DNA of 64,000 bases from a virus (taxonomy: Duplodnaviria > Heunggongvirae > Uroviricota > Caudoviricetes), in the IMG/VR virus record IMGVR_UViG_3300035208_002255, positions 1-64,000 of that record, one strand, 5' to 3'. Within the stretch, counting starts at the first letter, position 1. Each line of letters opens with the position of its first letter. The position numbers and the translations under genes are program-made. The notes below the pieces were generated by a model that saw nothing but the letters and a program-made list of their open reading frames with translations, had not been told where the DNA came from and did no database searches. Below are positions 4,895 through 64,000 of the stretch, piece by piece.

Positions 4895-5583
4895 ACAATA
4901 CCTTCAGCTAAGGAAAACCGCTTTTTCATTTCTGTAGTCTCTAGCAATGCTCTAAACCAGCTATCGTTTGTTACAAACTTTTCAACTTTGTCTAGAAACT
5001 TTTCGACATTTAGAAGATCCATTGTGATTCCATTTTGGTGTCTAAAACCATCAATAGAAATCCAGAACCTATCTCCATGGTGTTTGATTTTGCAAAGGTC
5101 TTTTTCCGTAATTTCGTATCCACAATATTTTGTATTTGGAACTTCCATTCCAATGAATAATGGAAATGCATTTAGTTGCATTCCCATAACTTCCTTATAA
5201 TCATGATCTGTTTTTGAAACTAGTATAGCTTCTTTGTCGGGAATAAGACACAGCGTATCAAGTAAATTCGTGTATCCATTCCTGATGTCTATCTGAACCC
5301 TCTGAATGGTGTCCCAGATATCAGGTCGTTCCTCTCTCAAAGAGAGGATTCCGTTCAGCATATCACGTTCCCATCGACCTTGCAAGATCCCTCTTACGCG
5401 AAGTCTATCTGCTTGATTTCGAAGATCTTCCAACCAATCGTCCGAAGGATAGGCCGGACGGGGCTCGGTATTTGAGCACAGATTCAGCCCCCACTCTACG
5501 AACGGATATTTCGCAGAGATTTCTACTAGTTCGGCTGGGGCAACAGAATCATCAACCCCGCAAATGGAAACTGTCGAAATCAT
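4891..5583 (-). CDS. hypothetical protein
   Basis: 230 aa ORF in operon-like array. Confidence 0.45.
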   Translation of the reverse strand: MISTVSICGVDDSVAPAELVEISAKYPFVEWGLNLCSNTEPRPAYPSDDWLEDLRNQADRLRVRGILQGRWERDMLNGILSLREERPDIWDTIQRVQIDIRNGYTNLLDTLCLIPDKEAILVSKTDHDYKEVMGMQLNAFPLFIGMEVPNTKYCGYEITEKDLCKIKHHGDRFWISIDGFRHQNGITMDLLNVEKFLDKVEKFVTNDSWFRALLETTEMKKRFSLAEGIV

Positions 5584-13420: not shown

Positions 13421-15412
13421 TCAGGATTTAGCGCCAACACTCAGCATGTAGTCTTCGATTTCGTTCACCGCCTCAATGAAGTGAGGTGAGCGCTTCATGC
13501 TTTTATCTCGTACGAACGGTAGAGGGGATCTGAACATCTTACGAATGTTTCCAGGATTCCTTCCCATCACGTAGATATCATCACCAAGATATACAGCTTC
13601 AGGAATATCATGGGTGACGAATACAACTGTTGGATTGATATCCGCCCAAATCTTAGCAAGAAGGTCCTGCATCTGTAGACGGGTTTCGATGTCCAAAGCT
13701 CCGAATGGTTCATCCATTAAAAGAATCTCTGAGTGATAAACCAGAGAGCGAGCAATTGCTACACGCTGAAGCTGGCCACCGGAAAGCGTTGGATACTGAG
13801 CGTATTTGTCTTCGTGACCTTCGAGACCCACAAGCTTGATCATTTCCATGGCTTTCTCTCTGCGCTGTTTGAGAGGAATGCCTTGGTATTCAAGACCCAG
13901 AGCCACGTTGTCAAGAACGCTCATCCATGGAAATGAAGAGTACTGTTGGAAGACCATTCCAACCCTATCTTCCTGTGTTCTTTCTCGCCCATGAATAAGG
14001 ATCTTTCCAGAAGTTGGGGTTTGAAGACCAGAGATATACCTAAGTATAGTTGAATTGTGAACAACAAATCCATTGGCCACAAAAGAATGAGATTCTGGAT
14101 TTGTTAGATCGTACACATCACTTTCTGATACTTCAATATTTGAAATTCTTCTATAATCGCGAATTAGAGGTTCTTTATTAGATTTTGGTTGTTGTTTTCT
14201 TCCTAGTTTAAACAGCTTATAAAGATTTTTAGATTGACGAATGTATACTCTATGAGATTTTCCACGAAATGATCTTTTGTATCCAATACCCATTGTAGAT
14301 AGCATAACGCATACAAAATCAATTAACTCTTTGGAATTTAATGCAATTTCGGCATCTTTATTATTTACACGAGAGTATCCATCTGTATCAAACAAACCTT
14401 GTAAAAATCGTAGTTGATGGTTGAACGAACTTTGTCGAATGCATTTTGGAACATCTTTTGTATCAGCATTAACATTACCAAAGATTTTGTGTAGCCAATA
14501 TGTAAAATGATTACTTTCTTTTGGTCGCAATAAAACTGCTTTTGTTCCATTTTTTTCACTTTGAGTAACTTCCACTCCAAATGTTTTTAGAGTGTATGTT
14601 TTGAAGAAATCGATCAATTCTTGATCGGCGGAAGTAAAACTAAATTGTTCACCAACAGAACCGTCGCCAGCAATCAAACCAAAATAATATGCAATGTTAC
14701 TAGATACAAAACCAGGAGCTTTAAACTTTGGTTTTTTGAGTTGATTTCTAACAACCCTATTAACAATCATTGGGCTAATATCTAGTAACTTTGCAATTTC
14801 TCTTTGGTTTAAACCTATCCTTTTATATCGTCGGATTTTTCGCTGCTTGGAAAAGAAACTTTTAGGAATTGCTCTGGGTAAACAGACCCGATCTTCCTGT
14901 GATTCGAAATTCATCTGCAAACCTTCTTTGGCAATAAAGTGCCCAATTTTAAGGTTTGCCATGGACATCCACTCTTCTTTGTTAGCAATTTTAACAAGAA
15001 CAGGATGTTCTGGAGTGCCCTCCAATCTATCTCCATCTTCTGTTGTTATGATTATAGTTTTTTTCTTACCACCATAATAAGTATGAGAGATTCTTTGATT
15101 CTCATTAGCTACCAGAACACCAAAATTGTTTCTTGGCATTGGCTGGTTTACCGGATGTTGTTCATCAAATAAATCTTCAATTCTACGAAGACCAGTTTCG
15201 CAAGTAACCCATGTACCTTTAGCTACACATTTGCCACAACCCGAAGCACCAAGCAAGACAACAAACTGTCCCTGATTCGGCTTGTCTTCAATGAGAAGAT
15301 TGAAGTCCTCGATGATAGGGGGCTTGCCATCATAGACCTGTGAAATACCACTCAATTCAATGATATCAGGAAGTTCTGTATTGGTGAATTTAACTGGTTG
15401 TTCCATAATCAA
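13421..15412 (-). CDS. ABC transporter ATP-binding protein (NitT/TauT family) interrupted by an intein
   Basis: Walker A GASGCGK is split; C-extein has LSGGQLQRVAIARSL, Walker B LLMDEPFGALD and an H-loop; 663 aa, of which 271 aa are extein. Confidence 0.85.
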   Translation of the reverse strand: MIMEQPVKFTNTELPDIIELSGISQVYDGKPPIIEDFNLLIEDKPNQGQFVVLLGASGCGKCVAKGTWVTCETGLRRIEDLFDEQHPVNQPMPRNNFGVLVANENQRISHTYYGGKKKTIIITTEDGDRLEGTPEHPVLVKIANKEEWMSMANLKIGHFIAKEGLQMNFESQEDRVCLPRAIPKSFFSKQRKIRRYKRIGLNQREIAKLLDISPMIVNRVVRNQLKKPKFKAPGFVSSNIAYYFGLIAGDGSVGEQFSFTSADQELIDFFKTYTLKTFGVEVTQSEKNGTKAVLLRPKESNHFTYWLHKIFGNVNADTKDVPKCIRQSSFNHQLRFLQGLFDTDGYSRVNNKDAEIALNSKELIDFVCVMLSTMGIGYKRSFRGKSHRVYIRQSKNLYKLFKLGRKQQPKSNKEPLIRDYRRISNIEVSESDVYDLTNPESHSFVANGFVVHNSTILRYISGLQTPTSGKILIHGRERTQEDRVGMVFQQYSSFPWMSVLDNVALGLEYQGIPLKQRREKAMEMIKLVGLEGHEDKYAQYPTLSGGQLQRVAIARSLVYHSEILLMDEPFGALDIETRLQMQDLLAKIWADINPTVVFVTHDIPEAVYLGDDIYVMGRNPGNIRKMFRSPLPFVRDKSMKRSPHFIEAVNEIEDYMLSVGAKS
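14054..15229 (-). mobile_element. intein (392 aa) with LAGLIDADG homing endonuclease domain in the ABC ATPase P-loop
   Basis: Starts with Cys right after GASGCGK, ends ...FVVHN followed by Ser; LAGLIDADG blocks YYFGLIAGDGS and LQGLFDTDGYS. Confidence 0.8.
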
Positions 15413-31712: not shown

Positions 31713-32336
31713 TTCATTTTAATTTCTAGATGGAAAGACATCTTCTTTAGAGAAATTGTCATACATTAAGGAAATGTGACTAAGTTGGTATGGCTGAACG
31801 CTTAAAGGTCTAACCATAGTTAGAACTTCCATCCAGCCATGAACCGCACAGGATTCGAACCTATATTTCCTACACTTAGCATTGTCCGGACAATGCTAAA
31901 TGTGGCGTTCCTAAACCATTTAAACTAGCGGCACGAGGAGTTGAAATCTATCACATCGAAACTTGATGTCAAGAACTTTTTGTAGGACGAGTCAGGGTTG
32001 AACGATAACTTTTAAAACTCTGACAACTGCTGGCGTGAACCGCTAGCTATCCTGTTTCGAGATGCGAAGTTACTACTAGAAGTTCTGGAAGTCAAGCTTT
32101 TTCTTTTGGGGCCTACTGTTTCAGGGATTCAATTGGGCCACCATTTGGAACGAAAACAAAATCACGAAAACCACTGTTCCATAACTGCATCATAGGTGAT
32201 TTTCTCACCATTGCTAGATGTAGCGTTGCCTTCCAAAATGACACCCTCAAACCAAAGGTGAATGCTAAACCAAACCTTATCCTTTGGTAATCTACGAATT
32301 GCGTCACCAACTAACGCCGACTCCAATCCAATATCT

Positions 32337-32741: not shown

Positions 32742-33659
32742 CCTCTTCCTCGTGTAAATGGACTTAGTTCTGGGACTGTAAAATCAAGTCACCAGAACTT
32801 AATTCTAGACAATGATATTCCACTAGATCTGGACAGGATAAAGTAAGGATTTTCGGTTCTTTCAATGTCTCTACCACCATGTCCATGTCTTAGTGTGATG
32901 AGTTTCTGGCACTGAGGTGAATACTACCTAATTGGTTTGGGGTAGTAATGCCACTGGTTATTTGCTCGACACATGAGATCCGCTACTATCACTGCCTCTT
33001 CATAAGTAATCGGTTTACTACTAAAATATTTTGGATTACCTATATGTCCGAGAGGTTCGCAAAAAACTCCATAATTACCAGAAGGTGGGGCTTACCTTCT
33101 TCTGTGCCAATTGAAGTTATAATCTTATCTTTCTCTTCTTTGGAAATCATATTTATCCTTATCTTTCTTTTCTCAAGCAAGTCAATTACTGATGTTGCAA
33201 GATCTTCTTGCACACCATTCGCTAGTTAGTGATCCTACTGAGAGTTGAACTCAGCTTTTTCGATTTAGAGTCGAATACCTCCCACGAGGATAGGATCGAT
33301 TGAAGGGCCGTTTTATCACAGCCCTTCTTGGTTGTCAAGAGAATGCTAGTGGTAATTTCGCACAAAGTTTCTTCGAAATAGAAGACGGCTCCATTGTAAT
33401 AGCCGTGATTTTGTCTCCTATGTCTGGCTCTCGAAATACCGAGAATCTAACACCCTTTTCCGCTGCTGTCAACACTAGATTTTTCAAAGCCTGTTCATTT
33501 TCGACGACAAGTAATCCCAAGTAATTAGACTTGGTGTACCATTGATTGTCAATCTCAGGATGCTCATTTACGAACTCTCTCAAAGCATGCATACTTTGTA
33601 CGGCTTGAGATCCAAGAGAAAGGTCAGATCGAGTAATGACATAAAGCTTGTCACCTTCT

Positions 33660-35508: not shown

Positions 35509-36183
35509 TTACTTAACCAAAGAGCTTATTTCTGCTTCTGTTAGAAGAGAATCTTGGCAAGAGAAATTAGCTCCTACTGCTTGAGCTTCTCGACGACGAG
35601 TTATGCCCTTAGAGATGCTTGCATACACACCTGGAACGTTAGCAGTGCGGAATCCATAAGTGTTCGAGGAATTAAAACCAAGGCGAGCACCCTGCTCTTT
35701 CTGAGATTCAATATCTCCACCACCCATGAACACAAAAGACCACTTGTAAACATCTGTCTGATGTTTAACCATTTCCTTTACTTTAGCGGCAGCGAATTCC
35801 TTAGAACAATTCTCTTGACCATCAGTGATGATGAGAAAGATAATCTGTCCAGGGCGCTTCTCTTCAGGAAGAGCTGATAGCCGAGCACCAACAGCATTTA
35901 CAGTTCTACCAACAGCGTCCAGAAGAGCGGTAGATCCGCGAGGAACATAAGTTTCCTCATTGAGGTCAGAAACATCACTGATGTCTTTACCTTCGTAATC
36001 AATTTGATACTGATCATCAAACTGCACGAGAGTTAATAGAGCCTTACCCTTCGCCTTTTTCTGCTCAGCTACAAAGCTGTTAAAACCTCCGATAGTGTCG
36101 GCGCGAAGTGATTGCATAGAACCCGAACGATCGATGATCGCTACGATTTCTGTTAAGTTATTATCTACCATTTTATACCTCAA
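35509..36183 (-). CDS. von Willebrand factor A (vWA) domain protein
   Basis: MIDAS motif IIDRSGSM, downstream T and D residues. Confidence 0.65.
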   Translation of the reverse strand: MRYKMVDNNLTEIVAIIDRSGSMQSLRADTIGGFNSFVAEQKKAKGKALLTLVQFDDQYQIDYEGKDISDVSDLNEETYVPRGSTALLDAVGRTVNAVGARLSALPEEKRPGQIIFLIITDGQENCSKEFAAAKVKEMVKHQTDVYKWSFVFMGGGDIESQKEQGARLGFNSSNTYGFRTANVPGVYASISKGITRRREAQAVGANFSCQDSLLTEAEISSLVK

Positions 36184-36863: not shown

Positions 36864-37156
36864 AATCCATGCAATTCTTCATCTACAAGATCTTTTTCTT
36901 GTATTTCACCTTTTGGTGACCAAGCAAAATCATCATAATAAACCCAATGATTATCTTTGAGTCTATAAGCATCTACAATATATGGATCTGGATCATCTTC
37001 CATACCAATCATTTCTAGAAATTCTTTATCTAGAACCTTTGCTCTAATACGGTCTTCGGATGGAGATTGTTCAACATAAACACCTTCAAGTTTCCTTCCG
37101 TATCCAGAATCAACACCAAACCATAAATCTATTTTTGTTCCGATTTCAATTGTCAT
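36860..37156 (-). CDS. hypothetical protein
   Basis: 98 aa ORF. Confidence 0.4.
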   Translation of the reverse strand: MTIEIGTKIDLWFGVDSGYGRKLEGVYVEQSPSEDRIRAKVLDKEFLEMIGMEDDPDPYIVDAYRLKDNHWVYYDDFAWSPKGEIQEKDLVDEELHGF

Positions 37157-38154
37157 AATGCAACTCTGACTCCCAAATACAATCCGAAGTTTCCAGCCGT
37201 ATCGACCGAAACAGATGGACCAACATGAAGGTTATCAACCAACGGAAGATCTTTACCTACGTTGTAGTTGATAGGAGATAGTATTAGAACAGGTGCTTGT
37301 TGTTGAGTTGCATAACCAACACCTAGTGTTAAGAAACTCCATTGTGGAGAAACTTTCGTTTGTCCATATGAGAATAAAGACAACCCTATATTTGGAACAA
37401 CCTCAGCATGAATTGGAGGATTTACAATTACACCACCATCAATTCCTAGATACAATCTTGGATTGAAGCTAAAACTTGGAGATGGATATTCTTCAACAAT
37501 CTTTGCATTGGTAATTGGTATTACGTATGTCTTTCCATCGGCATCAATCTGGAATCTTGAGTAAGCGTAATGACGACCATTCTCATCCTGACCAAGAACT
37601 GTTGTTGAAGAGTACGTTCTCGGAGATATCTCAACAGCCCAAGGTTTGTCCTGCCATGCTGAGAATCCTACTCGACCAAATGGTACAACAACATTACCTT
37701 CGGAACCGTTGAATGGTTCTGTTAGGGTAAACCATTGCTGATTTGATAAATATCCATTAGGATCAGTGATAGGCTGATTTGGGTTTGGAGGATTCGGATT
37801 AGGTGTTGTATTTGACGTTGGTAGATTAGAACCTTTGTATCCAGGAGTTACAACAGATATAGTATGAACACCCTGAACATCAGCACCAAGCGTTTTCAGA
37901 TCTTTCTTGATTGCATCAATACTCAATCCTTGTTCTTTTAGAAGTCGTTCAAGCTCAGCTTGGGTAACGTAAGCTGCTTGTGCTCTAACAATTCCATTTC
38001 CGATATTCTTGGATTCGACAACTGAGGTTTCGATAGTTTTTAGACGTTCGATTGTATCATGTTGAACTTTAACGATAAATGCTAGTACTGCAATTATAAG
38101 CAGTACAGCACCAGCTATTGCTGCTGTTATTTTCCAGTCTTTTTTCCAGTCCAT
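37153..38154 (-). CDS. membrane-anchored protein with PNPNPPNPNQP linker
   Basis: N-terminal transmembrane helix, coiled coil, Pro/Asn linker, beta-rich C-terminus. Confidence 0.45.
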   Translation of the reverse strand: MDWKKDWKITAAIAGAVLLIIAVLAFIVKVQHDTIERLKTIETSVVESKNIGNGIVRAQAAYVTQAELERLLKEQGLSIDAIKKDLKTLGADVQGVHTISVVTPGYKGSNLPTSNTTPNPNPPNPNQPITDPNGYLSNQQWFTLTEPFNGSEGNVVVPFGRVGFSAWQDKPWAVEISPRTYSSTTVLGQDENGRHYAYSRFQIDADGKTYVIPITNAKIVEEYPSPSFSFNPRLYLGIDGGVIVNPPIHAEVVPNIGLSLFSYGQTKVSPQWSFLTLGVGYATQQQAPVLILSPINYNVGKDLPLVDNLHVGPSVSVDTAGNFGLYLGVRVAL

Positions 38155-40195: not shown

Positions 40196-40330
40196 TGAAT
40201 CAGGTGGGAGTCGAACCCACGTACTTAATTCGCTGTTTCTTTTTTCTTTACAGAAGTTTCTAGACTTGAAAATAATAAGTATAATCAAATCATTGTACCT
40301 GTATATCTTGATATTGATAACTGAATGCTT

Positions 40331-43254: not shown

Positions 43255-43959
43255 ATGAGACAAAAAACAAGTATAATTTGGAAACCTAATCGCGAAGAAT
43301 TTCAAACTATTGTAAATCAATATAACAGCTTAGCTGATATTTTACGACATTTTGGTTTACATGTTGGAGCTGGAAATTATAAAACTCTCAAAAATAGATT
43401 ACGAGAAGATAGTGTTAATTTTGAGCATATTAAGCTTGGTATAAATTCTAATAAAAATCGTCCGTCACCATTTAAGTTAGAGCTAAATGAAATTTTAGAT
43501 CGTCATTTAGTTTTTAACTCAAAAATAAAATCATCAAAACTGAAGGAATATATTCTTAAATTCAAATTGTTAGATAATAAATGTTCAGAATGTGGTCAAT
43601 TACCTGAGTGGAATGGTAAGCCGTTAATTCTTCAATTAGATCATATTAATGGTAATTCATCTGATAATAGATTAGAAAATCTAAGAATTCTTTGTCCTCA
43701 TTGCCATTCTCAAACAGATACTTTTTCTGGTAAAAGACTTAAAAAGCATTACAATTGTATTGATTGCCATTGTAGCATTACTAAAAACTCTACAAGGTGT
43801 AAATCATGTTCAAGTAAATTAACAAATAGAAAGACTAAGATTAATTGGCCTCAAAAAGAAGAATTAATTAAAATTACAAATGATATAGGATTTTCTGCTG
43901 CTGGTAGAGAGCTTGGCGTATCAGATAACGCTATTAGAAAACGATTAAAAATCCATTAA
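43255..43959 (+). CDS. HNH homing endonuclease (paralog 2 of 3)
   Basis: LQLDHINGNSSDNRLENLRILCPHCH; C-terminal LGVSDNAIRKRL. Confidence 0.8.
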   Translation: MRQKTSIIWKPNREEFQTIVNQYNSLADILRHFGLHVGAGNYKTLKNRLREDSVNFEHIKLGINSNKNRPSPFKLELNEILDRHLVFNSKIKSSKLKEYILKFKLLDNKCSECGQLPEWNGKPLILQLDHINGNSSDNRLENLRILCPHCHSQTDTFSGKRLKKHYNCIDCHCSITKNSTRCKSCSSKLTNRKTKINWPQKEELIKITNDIGFSAAGRELGVSDNAIRKRLKIH

Positions 43960-44149
43960 CATATAGGGGTCGAACTCATAAGTCCTTGCGGATCGTCAAC
44001 TTTCCAAGTTGATGCCGTCGCCAGCTGTCGGCTAGTCTCTCCATATTCCACTCGCGCACTCCCTAAGTGGACATCGGTTTTCTATCGTGTGCGCTACGCC
44101 AGTTCTATTGAACTAGAAAGAGTTTAAGTAACGAAAGAAGCGAGACCAT

Positions 44150-44262
44150 CGTTTTTCGGCGTCCTGCCACTAGACGAAATCCAATAAAGCTGGATAGAGG
44201 AATCGAACCTCTGTTTCCGGCGTGGAATGCGATGAATGATCTCAGAGCGCGTTACTTAGATG
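44150..44262 (-). other. tRNA-like cassette: T-arm + 3' acceptor (ATCCAGC), then TTT, then 5' acceptor-like (ATTGGAT) + D-arm (CGTC-TAGTGGCAG-GACG), flanked by motif 1 and motif 2
   Basis: Same permuted arrangement as 50791..50885, weaker acceptor pairing (5/7). Confidence 0.4.
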
Positions 44263-44406: not shown

Positions 44407-44540
44407 AAAAACAACGAAAATGCGATGACCAAATGTGTCTGCCAGTTCCACCACATCTAAGTTTCCTTAGATGACAGGATTCGAACCTGTAATTCCAATA
44501 TGTTTGTTTAGATGAATGGTCATCAAGCGCGTTGTTTAGT

Positions 44541-46133: not shown

Positions 46134-46550
46134 TTATTCATCATCTTCATCTTCTTCACGTTCCCAGCGCTCATATAATGCAGCTGGGCTATTATACGCA
46201 TCCCAAGGAATCTTATATTTCTTTTCTTCTTTGGTAATCTCTTTAGGTGGTTCCAGAGTAACATCTCTGGGAACAATTACCATTTTCAACTGATCGCCTT
46301 TTAAGACACAATTACCAATTATCAAAGGATCTTCACCTTTAGTTTCTCTGGTAAGATAATAAGTATTATTATCAAGACGAGGACCAATACCAAATCCTCT
46401 ATCATTCAATGCTTGTCGATAAAAATCAGTTCCATGACCAACACGTTTACCATTAGCGGTCTCAGTCAATGCTGAGTTTAACCAATGACGTTCAATATTA
46501 GTTAACGTTTGTTGGGCTAGTTTGAGAATCTGTTGGTGTCTTGAGATCAT
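46134..46550 (-). CDS. hypothetical protein (start trimmed; upstream codons overlap tRNA-Leu)
   Basis: Track ORF 46134..46637 runs into tRNA 46570..46653. Confidence 0.4.
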   Translation of the reverse strand: MISRHQQILKLAQQTLTNIERHWLNSALTETANGKRVGHGTDFYRQALNDRGFGIGPRLDNNTYYLTRETKGEDPLIIGNCVLKGDQLKMVIVPRDVTLEPPKEITKEEKKYKIPWDAYNSPAALYERWEREEDEDDE

Positions 46551-46569
46551 ATTTCTATGTCTATTTAGT

Positions 46570-46653
46570 GCCATTGGAGGGAGTCGAACCCTCATCCACG
46601 TACGTGGGCCAAATTTTGAGTTTGGTATGTATGCCAAATTCCATCACAATGGC
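46570..46653 (-). tRNA. tRNA-Leu (anticodon CAA), class II
   Basis: Acceptor GCCATTG/CAATGGC, stem CCAAA/TTTGG, loop CTCAAAA, variable hairpin CCACGTACGTGG. Confidence 0.7.
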
Positions 46654-46760
46654 GTAGATAACAGAGACTTGGATCTCTGCCCGAACCAACATTGATAATT
46701 TCCAAGTACCAATATCAATTCTAGAGTACAAAATAGGGTTCAAGCCAATCTGTACTTTGT

Positions 46761-46832
46761 AGGACGTATAGGATTCGAACCTATAACCTTTCCGTTATGG
46801 GCGGAACGCACTGACCGTTGTGCTAACGTCCC
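46761..46832 (-). tRNA. tRNA (anticodon CAT; third CAT tRNA)
   Basis: Acceptor GGGACGT/ACGTCCT, D GCAC/GTGC, stem TTCCG/CGGAA, loop CCCATAA. Confidence 0.7.
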
Positions 46833-47216
46833 AAAAAACTAATCTTGCTGCCCTTTAATCTGTTGCTTACCAAACCTTCGACCAATTCTCTTGAACCATC
46901 TGTACATAGATTTCTCAGAACTTCTCTGAGGTTTTTTCCTTTCCGGAACACCAAGGAATCGAGTCATCCTTGGCCAACCACCAGACTTACGCCGATCAAA
47001 TGGATTATCAAAGCCATAAGGTTTCATTTATTTAGCTTTCTGATTCTGAATGTTGCGGTCGGACAGTTCTGTTTGTGTTTTTCAAGAATCTCTTGAGCAT
47101 TCTTTTCCTTAACAAGAGAAATAGGTCTCTTGCAAGCATTACAAAACCACCAGCTTTTCATTAAGAAACATGAACATCCCATATACTGATACTAGAGTAT
47201 TCTAAGACTTCCTAGT

Positions 47217-47273
47217 TCTTCGAGTAGGAATTGAACCTACGTCCCTATGGCTCTTCCACTGAGCTATCGAAGA
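47217..47273 (-). other. 57-nt tRNA-like element with no anticodon arm (acceptor + D-arm + T-arm only)
   Basis: TCTTCGA-TA-GCTC-AGTGGAA-GAGC-CATAGGGAC-GTAGG-TTCAATT-CCTAC-TCGAAGA; perfect 7-bp acceptor pairing. Confidence 0.45.
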
Positions 47274-47302
47274 ATTGAAGGTTCCCTAAGGAACCTCCTA
47301 GC

Positions 47303-48145
47303 TTACCAAAGAATATTAGTATTCTGTGGTTCTGGTTTTTGCCAACCGAATCTCAGATCATTGATTGATAATTGCTGAATTGGTTGTGATATTAAAGAAC
47401 CTTCTGACATTGCGATTAGTCGTTTTTCAAATACAGATCTTCGCACAGTTCTTACTATATCTTCATCATTCCAAGTTCTCAGGTCTGTACTCTTTTTCCA
47501 GAATCTTTCAGCAAGAAAGACTCGTCTTCTAGAGGCTTCACCACCTCTTCCACAAGATCCTGATGCGTATACTTTTAGCTTTCCGCCAGGATTTGAACCA
47601 CATCTAGAATAAGACCATCGAATCATTTTCAAGCCTTCATAGAAACATAGCTTTCTATTATCTACTAAAGCTTGACCAGTAACACCTTTTTCGATATCTT
47701 CTGGATTGTCACCGAACTGAGGTGGTCTGTCATACTTCACATTCCAAGTACGAGTTTTTGATGGAGCTTTTCCTGCCTTGATTTGCATCATGCACCATGA
47801 ATGTCCCGAATCTCCTCTGCCAGAAAGATCACCATAATCAACATCTCTGCGAAATCCGGACTCATGAAACATGATGGATAGCATAACAGCTACTGTATGC
47901 GCTCTTCCATCTGGTCCATCAAATACTGGTTTGTTATTAGGATCGTAGACAACCTCTACCAAATCCTTAGCTATCGATTCATATCTTTGATATGATTCTT
48001 CTGGAGTTTCAAATAGAACAATTGCGTCCTTTGTTTTACTCATTCGTACTTGATCACGACGACTCTGTTCCGCAGGGGGAATCATTGTCATCATGAACGC
48101 CATAATCCATGCAAATAATCCGTTCATGTATCCTCGGGGTGTCAT
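47303..48145 (-). CDS. lytic transglycosylase (SLT domain) / peptidoglycan hydrolase
   Basis: FHESGF...SGHSWCMMQI matches the SLT ES...GLMQ catalytic signature. Confidence 0.6.
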   Translation of the reverse strand: MTPRGYMNGLFAWIMAFMMTMIPPAEQSRRDQVRMSKTKDAIVLFETPEESYQRYESIAKDLVEVVYDPNNKPVFDGPDGRAHTVAVMLSIMFHESGFRRDVDYGDLSGRGDSGHSWCMMQIKAGKAPSKTRTWNVKYDRPPQFGDNPEDIEKGVTGQALVDNRKLCFYEGLKMIRWSYSRCGSNPGGKLKVYASGSCGRGGEASRRRVFLAERFWKKSTDLRTWNDEDIVRTVRRSVFEKRLIAMSEGSLISQPIQQLSINDLRFGWQKPEPQNTNILW

Positions 48146-48169
48146 AGTATTAGAAGCCCCATGCGGCTG
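48141..48169 (-). promoter_or_regulatory. conserved 28-nt element GTCATAGTATTAGAAGCCCCATGCGGCT (copy A), putative phage promoter
   Basis: Sits right upstream of the SLT gene start; five near-identical copies in the window. Confidence 0.4.
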
Positions 48170-48450
48170 TTTTCGCCAGTGGTTAACCTACTGGTTGGTT
48201 GAGCGAGCCGAAACTCTAGTTACTTGTTTCAAGGTAGTCAAGAAGTTTTGGGATACAGCCGACCGGCTGACAAACTCTCAACTCGAAAACAAGAACAGTA
48301 TCCAAAGGCTCTTTGCCTGAGCCTAGGATTATTCCTCGACATCAAACCTTTACCCTTGAGATACTTCGTCAGACAACTTTCATTCTAACGAGAATTCCAA
48401 GCTTAGCAGTTTTCTCCGTATGTAAGATGAGGTAGTATTACCATACTACC

Positions 48451-58248: not shown

Positions 58249-58407
58249 ATAAAGAACAACGAAAAAGCGAGACCAGTTTTGTTTTTAAGCTTCCTGGCCG
58301 TTGTATTAGTTCTTTCGAACTAGTGGCCAGGGTTGGATTCGAACCAACAATCTATTTCTTTTCATGGAATTGCTTTGCCGATGAAAGATCTCTAACGCGT
58401 TGTTCAG

Positions 58408-58486
58408 TGGATGCAGTAGGATTTGAACCTACAAGTCTGTGAGGAACCGGAGCGATCCGGCGGGCCGCCAATTGCCCAATACATCC
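58408..58486 (-). pseudogene. tRNA-Tyr-like paralog with disrupted anticodon loop
   Basis: Acceptor, D-arm and T-arm nearly identical to tRNA-Tyr at 58588; anticodon region CCGGA-TCGC-TCCGG has a 4-nt loop. Confidence 0.4.
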
Positions 58487-58587
58487 ATCAACCAATCATT
58501 TAACGCCTTAGGGTGTATCTCCCCTGCCACAACTCCGATTGGTGCCGGGGGTTGTGCCGGCACAGATTTCATCTGCATAAGATAGAG

Positions 58588-58669
58588 TGGGTGCAGTAGG
58601 ATTCGAACCTACAAGTCTGTGAAGAACCAGAATTACAATCTGGAGGGCCACCAATTGCCCAATACACCC
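58588..58669 (-). tRNA. tRNA-Tyr (anticodon GTA), class II
   Basis: Acceptor GGGTGTA/TGCACCC, stem CCAGA/TCTGG, loop TTGTAAT, 14-nt variable arm. Confidence 0.65.
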
Positions 58670-58896
58670 GTAAGGCTGAGAAAGTTATCTGTTGTCTGGT
58701 GTTATAAAAAGACACCCAGTCTTTATCAACAAATAAATCCTCAGGAGCGTGGTGGCGGTTGGAATTGGACCAACACAGAAAACAAATCGGGAGTTTTACA
58801 AACTCTTGCCTTCACCAATAGGCGAGCGCCACCAAAGCATTCAGTTGTCAAGGATCGAGTGCTAGATTTAGCATTCGTACCAACTTGTCGTTGGAG

Positions 58897-59212: not shown

Positions 59213-59241
59213 GTCATAGTATTAGAAGCCCCATGCGGCTG
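59213..59241 (-). promoter_or_regulatory. conserved 28-nt promoter-like element (copy E)
   Basis: GTCATAGTATTAGAAGCCCCATGCGGCTG, upstream in the minus sense of the tRNA cluster at 58.1-58.97 kb. Confidence 0.4.
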
Positions 59242-59431
59242 TATTATTACGAAGTTATGCCTAGGTTTCTCGACCTAGAAAGTTCTTTTATGATAAAATC
59301 TTCTAAGATGAAGATTGGAAGAGTAACTTGTCCGATTCACCGACCACTCGCCATGGTCACGGGGCTTCGAACAAGTCCTGACTAAGGTACTTCAGGATGA
59401 ATCTGGTGTCAACCTGTTTTTTTCGTTTTTC

Positions 59432-62572: not shown

Positions 62573-64000
62573 TCACATCATTGTTGCTGCCAAGTTAGCA
62601 AGTTCAGAACGCTCACCCTTGGAAAGGGTTAGGTGACCAACTATTGGATTGTTATAAAGTTTCTCGATAGCAAAGCTCAATCCACATGATCCTTTATCCA
62701 TGTAAGGATTGTCAATCTGATCTGGGTCACCAGTCAAAACGATCTTGGTTCCATCACCACAACGAGTGATAATGGTTTTTAATTCATGAGGCGAAAGATT
62801 CTGGGCCTCGTCCACGATTAAGAACTGATTTGGAATGCTTCTACCACGAATATAAGTCAGTGGTTCAACCTTAATTAAGTCCTGTTTATACAGATCCTCA
62901 AACTTCATGTTTGTCTTCTTTTTACCAGAAGTCATCATTAGAAGTTCTAGGTTATCATAAATAGGTTGCATGTAAGGATCGAGCTTCTCTAAAAGAGTGT
63001 TGTGGGTAACAATAAAATCATCAGTTAAATACAAATGCTCTTCGTTTTCAATAAGTATACATTGACATTCCTTAACACCAACAAATTCTATTGATTTAAT
63101 CCTTGCATCATAAATATATGCACACTTGAATCTTTCACGTTTTCTTTCGATAAAGAAAGGATTCAAATTCTCTGGTAAAGAAATATTGAATTCATATGAA
63201 AGAAATTTTGGTGATATAGTCCTATTTTTTATGATTGATTTTTTACCAATTCTATCTCTTGATTTTATTTGGGCCCTACCACCAAGAGACTTTACAACCT
63301 CACAAACATCTTTTGCTAATTGTAAAGATGTTGTTGTAAATGATGCTTCTCCATTTGCTTTAACTGTACCGTCAGTATCCATCAAACCCCTAATTAGATT
63401 TATTCTATCTTCAACAGAAGAATATTTATACATATCAGGGATGAATTTATTATTACAAACTTTACCAAGTAAACCTAAATTATATATTGCATTTTTAACT
63501 GGATTAGACCATCTATTTTCATTTTCTACAAATTTATAAAAGTAGCCATCAATAGTTACATTTCTGGTACATTTATTATATATTGTAGATGTGTTAATGT
63601 CTGTTTTTTCTGCACAGATTCCAATTCGTGTATAGTTATAAACTTCACCAGTATTTGTATCAGTTATTTCAATTTGTCTTGCTGGTTTATTATTTGGTAT
63701 ATCTGAAACAATATTGTAATTAATTCCACATGGTTTAGATAAATAACAATTTAATTCTTTAACTTCTTCATTTACTCTTTGCGCAATTTCAACATCATTA
63801 TTTGATAATAATATTGATGTGCATAAAGATCCATCACCAAGTAAAGCGCCAAGAGTATATGGTTTTATAGGAAGTGACTTAACTTTATATTCTACAGGTT
63901 CATTTCTTGGAAGATAATGATTTAACTTTCCGTTTTTAGTTAGTGTATTTATTATCTCTCTTGTAGTTTTTATACTACCACTCTTATTTCTTTTCTTCTG
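62573..64000 (-). CDS. PhoH-like ATPase interrupted by an intein (partial, runs off the window edge)
   Basis: C-extein LIVDEAQNLSPHELKTIITRCGDGTKIVLTGDPDQID is PhoH-like; the minus-strand frame stays open with no stop from 63434 to 64000. Confidence 0.7.
   Translation of the reverse strand, partial: QKKRNKSGSIKTTREIINTLTKNGKLNHYLPRNEPVEYKVKSLPIKPYTLGALLGDGSLCTSILLSNNDVEIAQRVNEEVKELNCYLSKPCGINYNIVSDIPNNKPARQIEITDTNTGEVYNYTRIGICAEKTDINTSTIYNKCTRNVTIDGYFYKFVENENRWSNPVKNAIYNLGLLGKVCNNKFIPDMYKYSSVEDRINLIRGLMDTDGTVKANGEASFTTTSLQLAKDVCEVVKSLGGRAQIKSRDRIGKKSIIKNRTISPKFLSYEFNISLPENLNPFFIERKRERFKCAYIYDARIKSIEFVGVKECQCILIENEEHLYLTDDFIVTHNTLLEKLDPYMQPIYDNLELLMMTSGKKKTNMKFEDLYKQDLIKVEPLTYIRGRSIPNQFLIVDEAQNLSPHELKTIITRCGDGTKIVLTGDPDQIDNPYMDKGSCGLSFAIEKLYNNPIVGHLTLSKGERSELANLAATMM
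62999..64000 (-). mobile_element. intein with LAGLIDADG endonuclease domain inside the PhoH-like gene (N-terminal junction outside the window)
   Basis: LGALLGDGSL and LIRGLMDTDGT LAGLIDADG blocks; ends ...FIVTHN followed by Thr. Confidence 0.7.

Follow-up and report, generated by a model that had tools for sequence, protein, structure and literature searches.

The locus studied here, a 64,000-nt stretch of phage-like DNA (hereafter the window), raises the question of whether tRNA-shaped elements that lack an anticodon arm are debris of a tRNA array or RNAs in their own right. The window has a GC content of about 39% and carries nearly all of its genes on the minus strand, which is also the strand of all the tRNA-like elements listed below; its proteins include an AAA ATPase (phrog_10440) and two HNH endonucleases (phrog_10822), and a blastn search of positions 46500-48500 against 50,697 phage records returned 0 matches. 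ARAGORN called 37 tRNAs, on the minus strand throughout and most of them within 31.8-59 kb of the window, and Rfam gave 34 tRNA matches. The surplus of tRNA-like sequence is real and far above chance, because the motif GGTTCRANYCC occurs 41 times (40 on the minus strand) against 0.4 expected, and about 17 further well-paired T-arm hairpins lie outside the called tRNAs. A sequence-only reading of the window had listed six odd tRNA-like elements, and five of the six hold; the outcome that it had named as refuting, namely that tools fold the elements as canonical tRNAs, was found for 58749..58833 only and not for the other five.

Several observations on the window stand apart from that list. A tRNA of amber-suppressor type, with CUA as its anticodon and a D loop of 4 nt, lies at 33230..33297 (minus strand; Rfam 39.1 bits, missed by ARAGORN), and stop-codon recoding or suppression may be possible. 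An odd tRNA-like element at 54756..54828 (minus strand), with a possible CCA (Trp) loop, matched the tRNA-Sec model only (26.5 bits); elsewhere in the window no tRNA-Trp was called. Copies of a repeat about 65 nt long lie at 51405..51468, 54083..54148, 54217..54279 and 59213..59258, and two copies are also present in a relative, L109. Intein/LAGLIDADG insertions are found in an ABC-type ATPase gene (13421..15412, minus strand) and a PhoH gene (62573..63433, minus strand), near which lie NADAR, NAD kinase and CoaE (dephospho-CoA kinase) genes.

The first element without an anticodon arm (armless element 1; 47216..47273, minus strand) consists of a 7-bp acceptor stem, a D arm, a 9-nt linker, a T arm and a discriminator A (RNA: UCUUCGA UA GCUC AGUGGAA GAGC CAUAGGGAC GUAGG UUCAAUU CCUAC UCGAAGA A). 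Rfam aligned it end to end with the tRNA model at 46.2 bits, with 5 nt in place of 18 model positions, in agreement with the earlier description of 47217..47273 as a perfect 7-bp acceptor stem, D arm and T arm with 9 nt for the anticodon arm; ARAGORN made no call. It scored 66.6 bits with R1, a covariance model built in this analysis whose alignment contains both armless elements of the window, so that they match by construction, and intact tRNAs of the window score up to 45.4 bits with the same model. Three nucleotides before the element, directly past the stop codon of a 280-aa gene, is a 9-bp hairpin (47277..47298, minus strand; GGAGGUUCC UUAG GGAACCUUC, read directly from the sequence), which is kept with compensatory changes in the relatives L109, L150, L155 and L159. 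Exact searches of IMG/VR found neither the neighbouring protein nor the exact 41-nt core of the element; the exact 280-aa product has no database record, and the relatives' contigs were reached via homologues of this protein.

The relatives show what the slot of element 1 has held. L150 (79% amino acid identity) carries 44 tRNAs in 20.8 kb, including four tRNA-Asn and two tRNA-Tyr, and the window has one intact tRNA-Asn against these four. At the site of element 1, L150 has a tRNA-Asn(GUU) with an identical acceptor stem (UCUUCGA/UCGAAGA) and T stem (GUAGG/CCUAC), from which the window copy differs by a 15-nt deletion that takes out the anticodon arm; element 1 is a derivative of tRNA-Asn(GUU) that lacks the anticodon arm alone. 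The full tRNA-Asn, with acceptor and T stem identical to those of the window, occupies the slot in L150-L153. In L159 (neighbouring gene 82% amino acid identity) the 5' acceptor strand and D arm match the window at 24/24 nt, the flanks differ, and an armless-type linker is followed by the end of the contig inside the element; this copy is apparently armless. L154 has a 49-nt form (acceptor GUGUUGG/CCAACGC) and L160 a 60-nt form (acceptor UCCUUGG/CCAAGGA), both without an anticodon arm and with the D stem missing, and in both the acceptor and T arms are perfectly paired although their sequences differ. Another tRNA-Asn fills the slot in L155, a tRNA-Leu in L156 and an odd 85-nt tRNA-like element in L161. 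In the close relatives L109 and L157 the slot is empty but for a left-over TCTTCGA, so that armless element 1 is dispensable. The series from full tRNA-Asn through the armless form and the acceptor/T minihelix to nothing shows stages through which a tRNA gene can turn into a non-decoding tRNA-like RNA.

A second armless element, absent from the earlier list, was found with model R1 at 53902..53964 (minus strand; RNA: GAUUUCU UC ACUC AAUUGGUA GAGU GAACCUAUUGGUC CUCAG UUCAAUU CUGAG AGAAGUC U). It scored 45.9 bits with R1, in whose alignment it is itself included, and its fold has a z-score of -2.9; Rfam reported no tRNA at 53902..53964 even at E<10. The L150 tRNA-Asn at 5161-5233 has the same variable loop, T arm, 3' acceptor strand and downstream flank, and element 2 is rebuilt from a tRNA-Asn(GUU) other than that of element 1. 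Alignment to the tandem L150 tRNA-Asn genes (5086-5233) also identifies the decayed remains of two tandem tRNA-Asn at 53994..54110 (minus strand), consisting of a broken T arm and then the old 5' half (GACUUCU UA GCUC AAUGGUA GAAAAG ... CUGUUAAA). This old half, about 40 nt upstream of element 2, has decayed, and element 2 itself is perfectly paired. Both armless elements (47273..47216 and 53964..53902) have the 7-bp acceptor, the D arm and a T arm whose loop fits UUCRANY, and neither contains a stem-breaking substitution. A mobile-element origin of the armless elements was rejected, their sequences being unrelated beyond tRNA features and an ancestral tRNA being present at each site.

An anticodon arm of a 5-bp stem and a 7-nt loop is lacking not only in element 1 (47273..47216) but also in 58486..58407, which has a 4-nt loop, and in 31934..31840, which has a long hairpin, and ARAGORN called none of the three a decodable tRNA. 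The first of these other elements (58407..58486, minus strand; 'tRNA-???' in ARAGORN) is a tRNA-Tyr paralogue with the anticodon loop UCGC and the variable arm kept. It folds into a cloverleaf with a 5-6 bp anticodon stem under the UCGC cap, and differs from the true tRNA-Tyr by a 3-nt loop deletion and a compensatory A-U to G-C change in the anticodon stem; fold and alignment both agree with its description as a near-copy of tRNA-Tyr with a 4-nt anticodon loop (58408..58486). It is one of two tandem copies in the window where L150 has a single gene, and is a window-specific tandem duplicate. The element at 58757..58845 had been folded by hand as an acceptor and T arm around a GNRA-tetraloop hairpin; this fold is wrong, because ARAGORN and Rfam (34.5 bits) read a second, class-II tRNA-Tyr(GUA) at 58749..58833 (minus strand), in which the variable arm is long and the T loop (UCCAAUU) is aberrant; its homologue in L150 (512-596) is likewise called Tyr. 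The non-decoding copies of the window (47216..47273, 53902..54110 and 58407..58833) descend from tRNA-Asn(GUU) and tRNA-Tyr(GUA), both with GUN anticodons (queuosine-family).

The element at 31840..31934 (minus strand) has 6/7 acceptor pairs, a D arm, a T arm and, in the anticodon-arm position, a 14-16 bp hairpin with a CCGG loop, a fold that agrees with the T arm plus hairpin noted earlier at 31841..31935. Its Rfam score of 29.3 bits is just at the gathering threshold (29 bits), and the ARAGORN call of 'tRNA-Stop(tta)' is a forced reading. The 24-nt palindrome at 31876..31899 is unique within the window and absent from all fetched relative loci.

The remaining elements are of a different kind. 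At 43965..44060 (minus strand) a tRNA-Ser(GGA) pseudogene aligns over its full length to tRNA-Ser, including a GGA anticodon loop, and corresponds to the L150 tRNA-Ser(GGA) minus 13 nt, the 3' half of the T stem and the 3' acceptor strand being gone. ARAGORN and Rfam (even at E<10) are silent there and no stable fold is found (z-score +1.4), so that it is the alignment that bears out the description of a degenerate Ser-like tRNA beside an HNH gene. A lone T arm (40204..40220, minus strand; GUGGG UUCGACU CCCAC) lies directly 5' of tRNA-Lys(UUU); L150 has two tandem tRNA-Lys(UUU) at this site, with the T arm falling at the first, and it is probably the remnant of a second tRNA-Lys. The fragment reported at 40196..40240 thus stands as a lone T arm (40220..40204), and its placement after tRNA-Lys does not, since on the coding strand it is 5' of that gene. 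An orphan T arm (49713..49729, minus strand) adjoins the start of an HNH gene (49747..50421, plus strand). The truncated tRNA-Ser (44060..43965), the lone T arms (40220..40204 and 49729..49713) and the remains at 53994..54110 are ordinary dead tRNA pseudogenes or fragments.

The truncated tRNA-Ser adjoins another HNH gene (43255..43959, plus strand), and a 1.37-kb block (49620..50987), which contains two tRNAs and a stem unit besides an HNH gene and an orphan T arm, is absent from L109. Intact tRNAs stand in L150 at the sites of four window elements (armless elements 1 and 2, the Ser-like element and the lone Lys T arm), and together with the tandem duplication of the Tyr-like element this upholds the sequence-only reading's claim of heavy rearrangement of tRNA sequence. 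Its suggested link to homing endonucleases gains from the HNH genes that adjoin the truncated tRNA-Ser, the orphan T arm and the block absent from L109, and is real, if circumstantial. The listed elements are debris and survivors of fast turnover of tRNA paralogues in an HNH-carrying array of an uncultured large phage. Gain and loss of paralogues in this HNH-colonised array resemble the case of phage T6, in which the homing endonuclease SegB drives the amplification of tRNA loci (PMC13096335).

Do the armless elements belong with the debris? It is conceivable, although we think it somewhat unlikely, that every element, the armless ones included, is a young, functionless pseudogene left from collapsed, amplified tRNA paralogues by duplication, HNH-induced breaks and sloppy repair. 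Such an origin would fit the contrast between the 44 tRNAs and four tRNA-Asn of L150 and the single intact tRNA-Asn of the window, the different parts of the tRNA struck by deletions (the 3' end in Ser, the 5' part in Lys, the anticodon arm in Asn), the complete loss of the element in L109 and L157, and the documented precedent of homing-endonuclease-driven amplification in T6 (PMC13096335). It is harder to reconcile with the stems of both armless elements, which are free of breaking substitutions even though the adjoining discarded half has decayed, or with the slot at which four lineages have acceptor and T arms that differ in sequence and yet pair perfectly. It also has to account for the same architecture, with covariation, in more than 90 unrelated phage contigs, where the element is often the sole tRNA-like gene.

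This wider class, as defined by model R1, has a closed 7-bp acceptor, a D arm, a linker of 5-13 nt ending in C, a T arm and a discriminator, and no anticodon arm. IMG/VR was searched with a common D arm, 7-16 nt and a T arm, which yielded 67 contigs for one D-loop variant of this pattern and 40 for the other. At least 6/7 acceptor pairs were present in 95 of the 106 pattern matches (about 1.3% expected by chance), and the acceptor sequences were many and different. Over 49 distinct sequences, 96.7% of cells are paired, 7/7 acceptor pairs and 4/5 T pairs covary, and the covariation score is 0.728 (versus 0.157 when shuffled and 0.15-0.19 when slid); the unbiased pairing figure is the 95/106, because the D arm was fixed in the choice of these 49 rows, which had also passed a filter for acceptor pairing. 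Most linkers measure 8-9 nt and about 90% end in C (the partner of G15 in tRNA), and the many G-U pairs indicate that the class is an RNA of this strand. Most of the matches lie on a contig without any other tRNA. Many copies are followed after 17-34 nt by a Terminase_2, Terminase_5, TerL, portal or DUF4417 gene (the downstream genes include terminase small-subunit genes of three Pfam types), often with a terminator-like hairpin directly before the element and always with the element in the orientation of the downstream gene.

The armless design recurs under selection in more than 100 further phage contigs and is probably a working tRNA-like RNA missed by gene finders. The earlier suggestion of functional mini-tRNA-like RNAs is in this way supported for the class (by covariation, recurrence and the orthologous slot) and is no more than a possibility for the window copies, of which element 1 has no counterpart in L109 and L157. 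Rfam has no family except tRNA for the armless loci, and the literature that we searched (with incomplete coverage) held no description of tRNA-like genes without an anticodon arm in phages. A gut-phage armless element had 0 blastn matches among the 50,697 phage records, and cultured phages with a related terS (Acutalibacter phage Fontainebleau and C. difficile phages) do not carry the element. A published catalogue of gut phages contains expressed structured RNAs of about 64 nt (PMC10690425), whose identity with the armless class is not implied.

Some loci of the class have features of their own. A conserved sequence lies about 70 nt 5' of the armless element in L016, L100, L024 and L060, whose contigs are otherwise different, and G3:U70, the alanine identity pair, is present in L024, L060 and L003 only. 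In L038 (7950..8175, minus strand) an armless element adjoins a tRNA-like element whose anticodon position is taken up by a long, irregular hairpin; the window combines the same two forms. In L005, L009, L012, L064 and related gut-phage loci, module mosaic junctions fall exactly at both ends of the armless element, and in L064 the 5' acceptor strand has been swapped and is unpaired.

Those junctions at the two element ends, together with the swapped strand of L064, are what would be expected if the element acted as DNA, either as a conserved linker for the recombination of phage modules or as the remnant of an attachment site. We consider this very improbable: pairing is maintained through G-U pairs, which are A-C mismatches on the other strand, the orientation always agrees with that of the downstream gene, and positions of tRNA tertiary contacts are conserved. 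attP sites carry 3' parts of tRNAs and not a D arm joined to a T arm, and an attP identity was rejected on both architecture and position.

If the armless elements are RNAs, what they have kept may bear on what they do. The two window elements have lost the decoding arm alone; they retain a 7-bp acceptor stacked on a T arm, D and T loops that could make up the elbow, and the pairing of the linker-final C with G15. The acceptor/T-arm-type features retained here are those that RNase P, RNase Z and the CCA enzyme recognise in bacteria. Degenerate tRNA-like folds can stand in for real tRNAs as processing signals, and in mascRNA/MALAT1-type 3'-end modules and in mitochondrial 'tRNA punctuation' a longer transcript is cut where RNase P and RNase Z recognise a tRNA-shaped fold that does not decode. 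RNase P likewise cleaves a bacterial Y RNA whose acceptor-like stem has 7 bp, and this RNA receives CCA (PMC4201824). Our tentative proposal, which we hold as a serious possibility and not as an established role, is that the armless elements are tRNA-like RNAs that do not decode and act as tRNA punctuation. They would be co-transcribed with the array or with late operons, excised by RNase P and 3'-end enzymes and finished by the CCA enzyme, and the excised RNAs would be incapable of decoding. Their main role would be exerted in cis, where the cut would separate adjacent small mRNAs and define, release or stabilise their ends; a role of the released RNA in trans is possible and would not be needed.

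Under punctuation the retained value would be the cut, so a tRNA slot could shed its anticodon once decoding had become redundant. This would explain how the slot came to lose the anticodon, and even the D stem, while the acceptor and T arms stayed, why unrelated phages have one copy just before the first packaging gene, and why some relatives have lost the element outright. Several considerations weigh against it. Because other paralogues of this genome have been inactivated by deletions elsewhere in the tRNA, the loss of the anticodon arm could be one random, and merely young, outcome among varied deletions. The link with terminase genes may reflect the usual location of phage tRNAs and not a function in cis. 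The element is also dispensable, as its absence from the slot of L109 and L157 shows, and the L159 copy is cut off at the contig end.

Punctuation by armless elements would differ from the known cases. The mascRNA and mitochondrial examples are eukaryotic or organellar, and mascRNA keeps a short anticodon stem, whereas the armless elements are found in dsDNA phages, have 2-4 nt in place of the arm, and are predicted to be processed. YrlA (Rfam RF02553) is a tRNA mimic with a T arm, a D arm and an acceptor-like stem and no anticodon; YrlA-type Y RNA is modified by tRNA enzymes, and in M. smegmatis it is cleaved by RNase P and receives CCA (PMC4201824). Unlike YrlA, the armless elements of the window have their parts in the usual order from 5' to 3', their acceptor is open, and they appear to lack a Ro-binding stem. 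The tRNA-like domain of tmRNA similarly combines an acceptor and a T arm with RNase P processing and has no anticodon arm, but tmRNA has G3:U70, a reduced D region, a tag reading frame and pseudoknots, none of which is present in the window elements: their acceptors have U3-A70, not G3:U70, and the tmRNA model matches in the window are weak, at 20-38 bits (threshold 47), and located away from them. From ordinary tRNA pseudogenes the armless elements differ in their intact remaining stems and in the recurrence of the design under selection elsewhere. The armless design extends the known theme of tRNA mimics, and is widespread and unannotated.

The order of YrlA (T arm, closed acceptor, D arm) is shared by the 'permuted' stem units of the window, the best of which scores 31.3 bits with the Rfam YrlA model against a threshold of 69. 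Ten to twelve such stem units lie between the tRNAs on the minus strand (58404..58256, 57029.., 55050.., 54745.., 53359.., 51380..51315, 51230..51073, 50909..50762, 44536..44411, 44256..44128 and 43125..). Each is made of an outer stem (RYAACG/CGUURY), an internal loop, a covarying inner stem of 6-8 bp and a UUCAUC motif, and most enclose a T arm and a closed acceptor hairpin, sometimes with a D arm, in the YrlA-like order. The unit at 58404..58256 is kept in L150, where compensatory changes and a loop swap from GAAA to UUCG are seen. No Pfam match to Ro60/TROVE was found among the 30 window ORFs scanned, two of which were also searched against solved structures: the ORF at 35509..36183 was rejected as Ro60, having a weak vWA match and integrin I-domains, not Ro, as its nearest structures, and so was that at 37153..38154, which gave no match. 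A 99-nt tRNA-like element (56021..56119, minus strand; 2166-2264 in L150), called 'tRNA-Val aac' by ARAGORN, in which a 7-bp 'anticodon' stem carries a loop of 5 nt and the variable region is long, looks strongly conserved, because it is 96% identical in L150 against about 77% for nearby DNA. Chains that resemble tandem or permuted tRNA-like modules are conserved on chromosomes in L071, L083, L099, L104 and other Chitinophagaceae/Bacteroidota loci, in the order T arm, hairpin, D arm, AACAGAMA linker, T arm, hairpin, class-II D arm, anticodon arm; they match no Rfam family.

The armless RNAs might instead work in trans. Released anticodon-less bodies derived from tRNA-Asn and tRNA-Tyr could bind immune nucleases or toxins that target tRNA, and, being uncleavable, shield the host and phage tRNA pool, a role that we judge distinctly unlikely. 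Precedent for the targets exists: OLD removes or cuts the anticodon arm (PMC12445682), Septu and retron-Eco7 act on tRNA-Tyr, with Septu cutting its variable loop, and over-expressed phage tRNA-Tyr partly suppresses the degradation of host tRNA-Tyr (PMC13096335). The non-decoding copies come from tRNA-Asn and tRNA-Tyr, GUN-anticodon tRNAs that are multi-copy in relatives, the Tyr-like copy has kept its variable arm, and the elements are accessory, present in some relatives and not in others, as anti-defence genes are. Against this, one gene copy is unlikely to titrate an enzyme in the face of the cellular tRNA pool, the L154 and L160 forms may not form the elbow because their D stem is missing, no defence partner is known, and the literature searched describes no such decoys. 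The phage tRNAs with documented anti-defence activity (T6 SegB/tRNA-Tyr, T5 tRNA-Tyr, and tRNA-Thr against OLD; PMC13096335, PMC12445682) resemble the window in combining an array with a homing endonuclease, in the duplication of tRNA-Tyr and other paralogues, in altered anticodon stems and in variable copy number; they decode and replenish the pool, however, and the armless elements of the window cannot decode. A broader form of the idea looks improbable to us, namely that phages of many lineages encode a distinct class of anticodon-less tRNA acting in trans as an uncleavable decoy or inhibitor, with the window showing its birth from redundant tRNA-Asn and tRNA-Tyr; such a class would be invisible to tRNAscan-type tools.

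Standard tRNA finders skip the armless elements and Rfam files them as plain tRNA, so that annotations either miss them or overcount decoding capacity. Should the decoy role prove true, it would amount to a new RNA-based counter-defence in the arms race centred on tRNA. If instead the armless elements are processing signals, as we tentatively propose, tRNA punctuation would serve phage operons in much the way it serves mitochondria, and one place of its use would be the beginning of the packaging genes.
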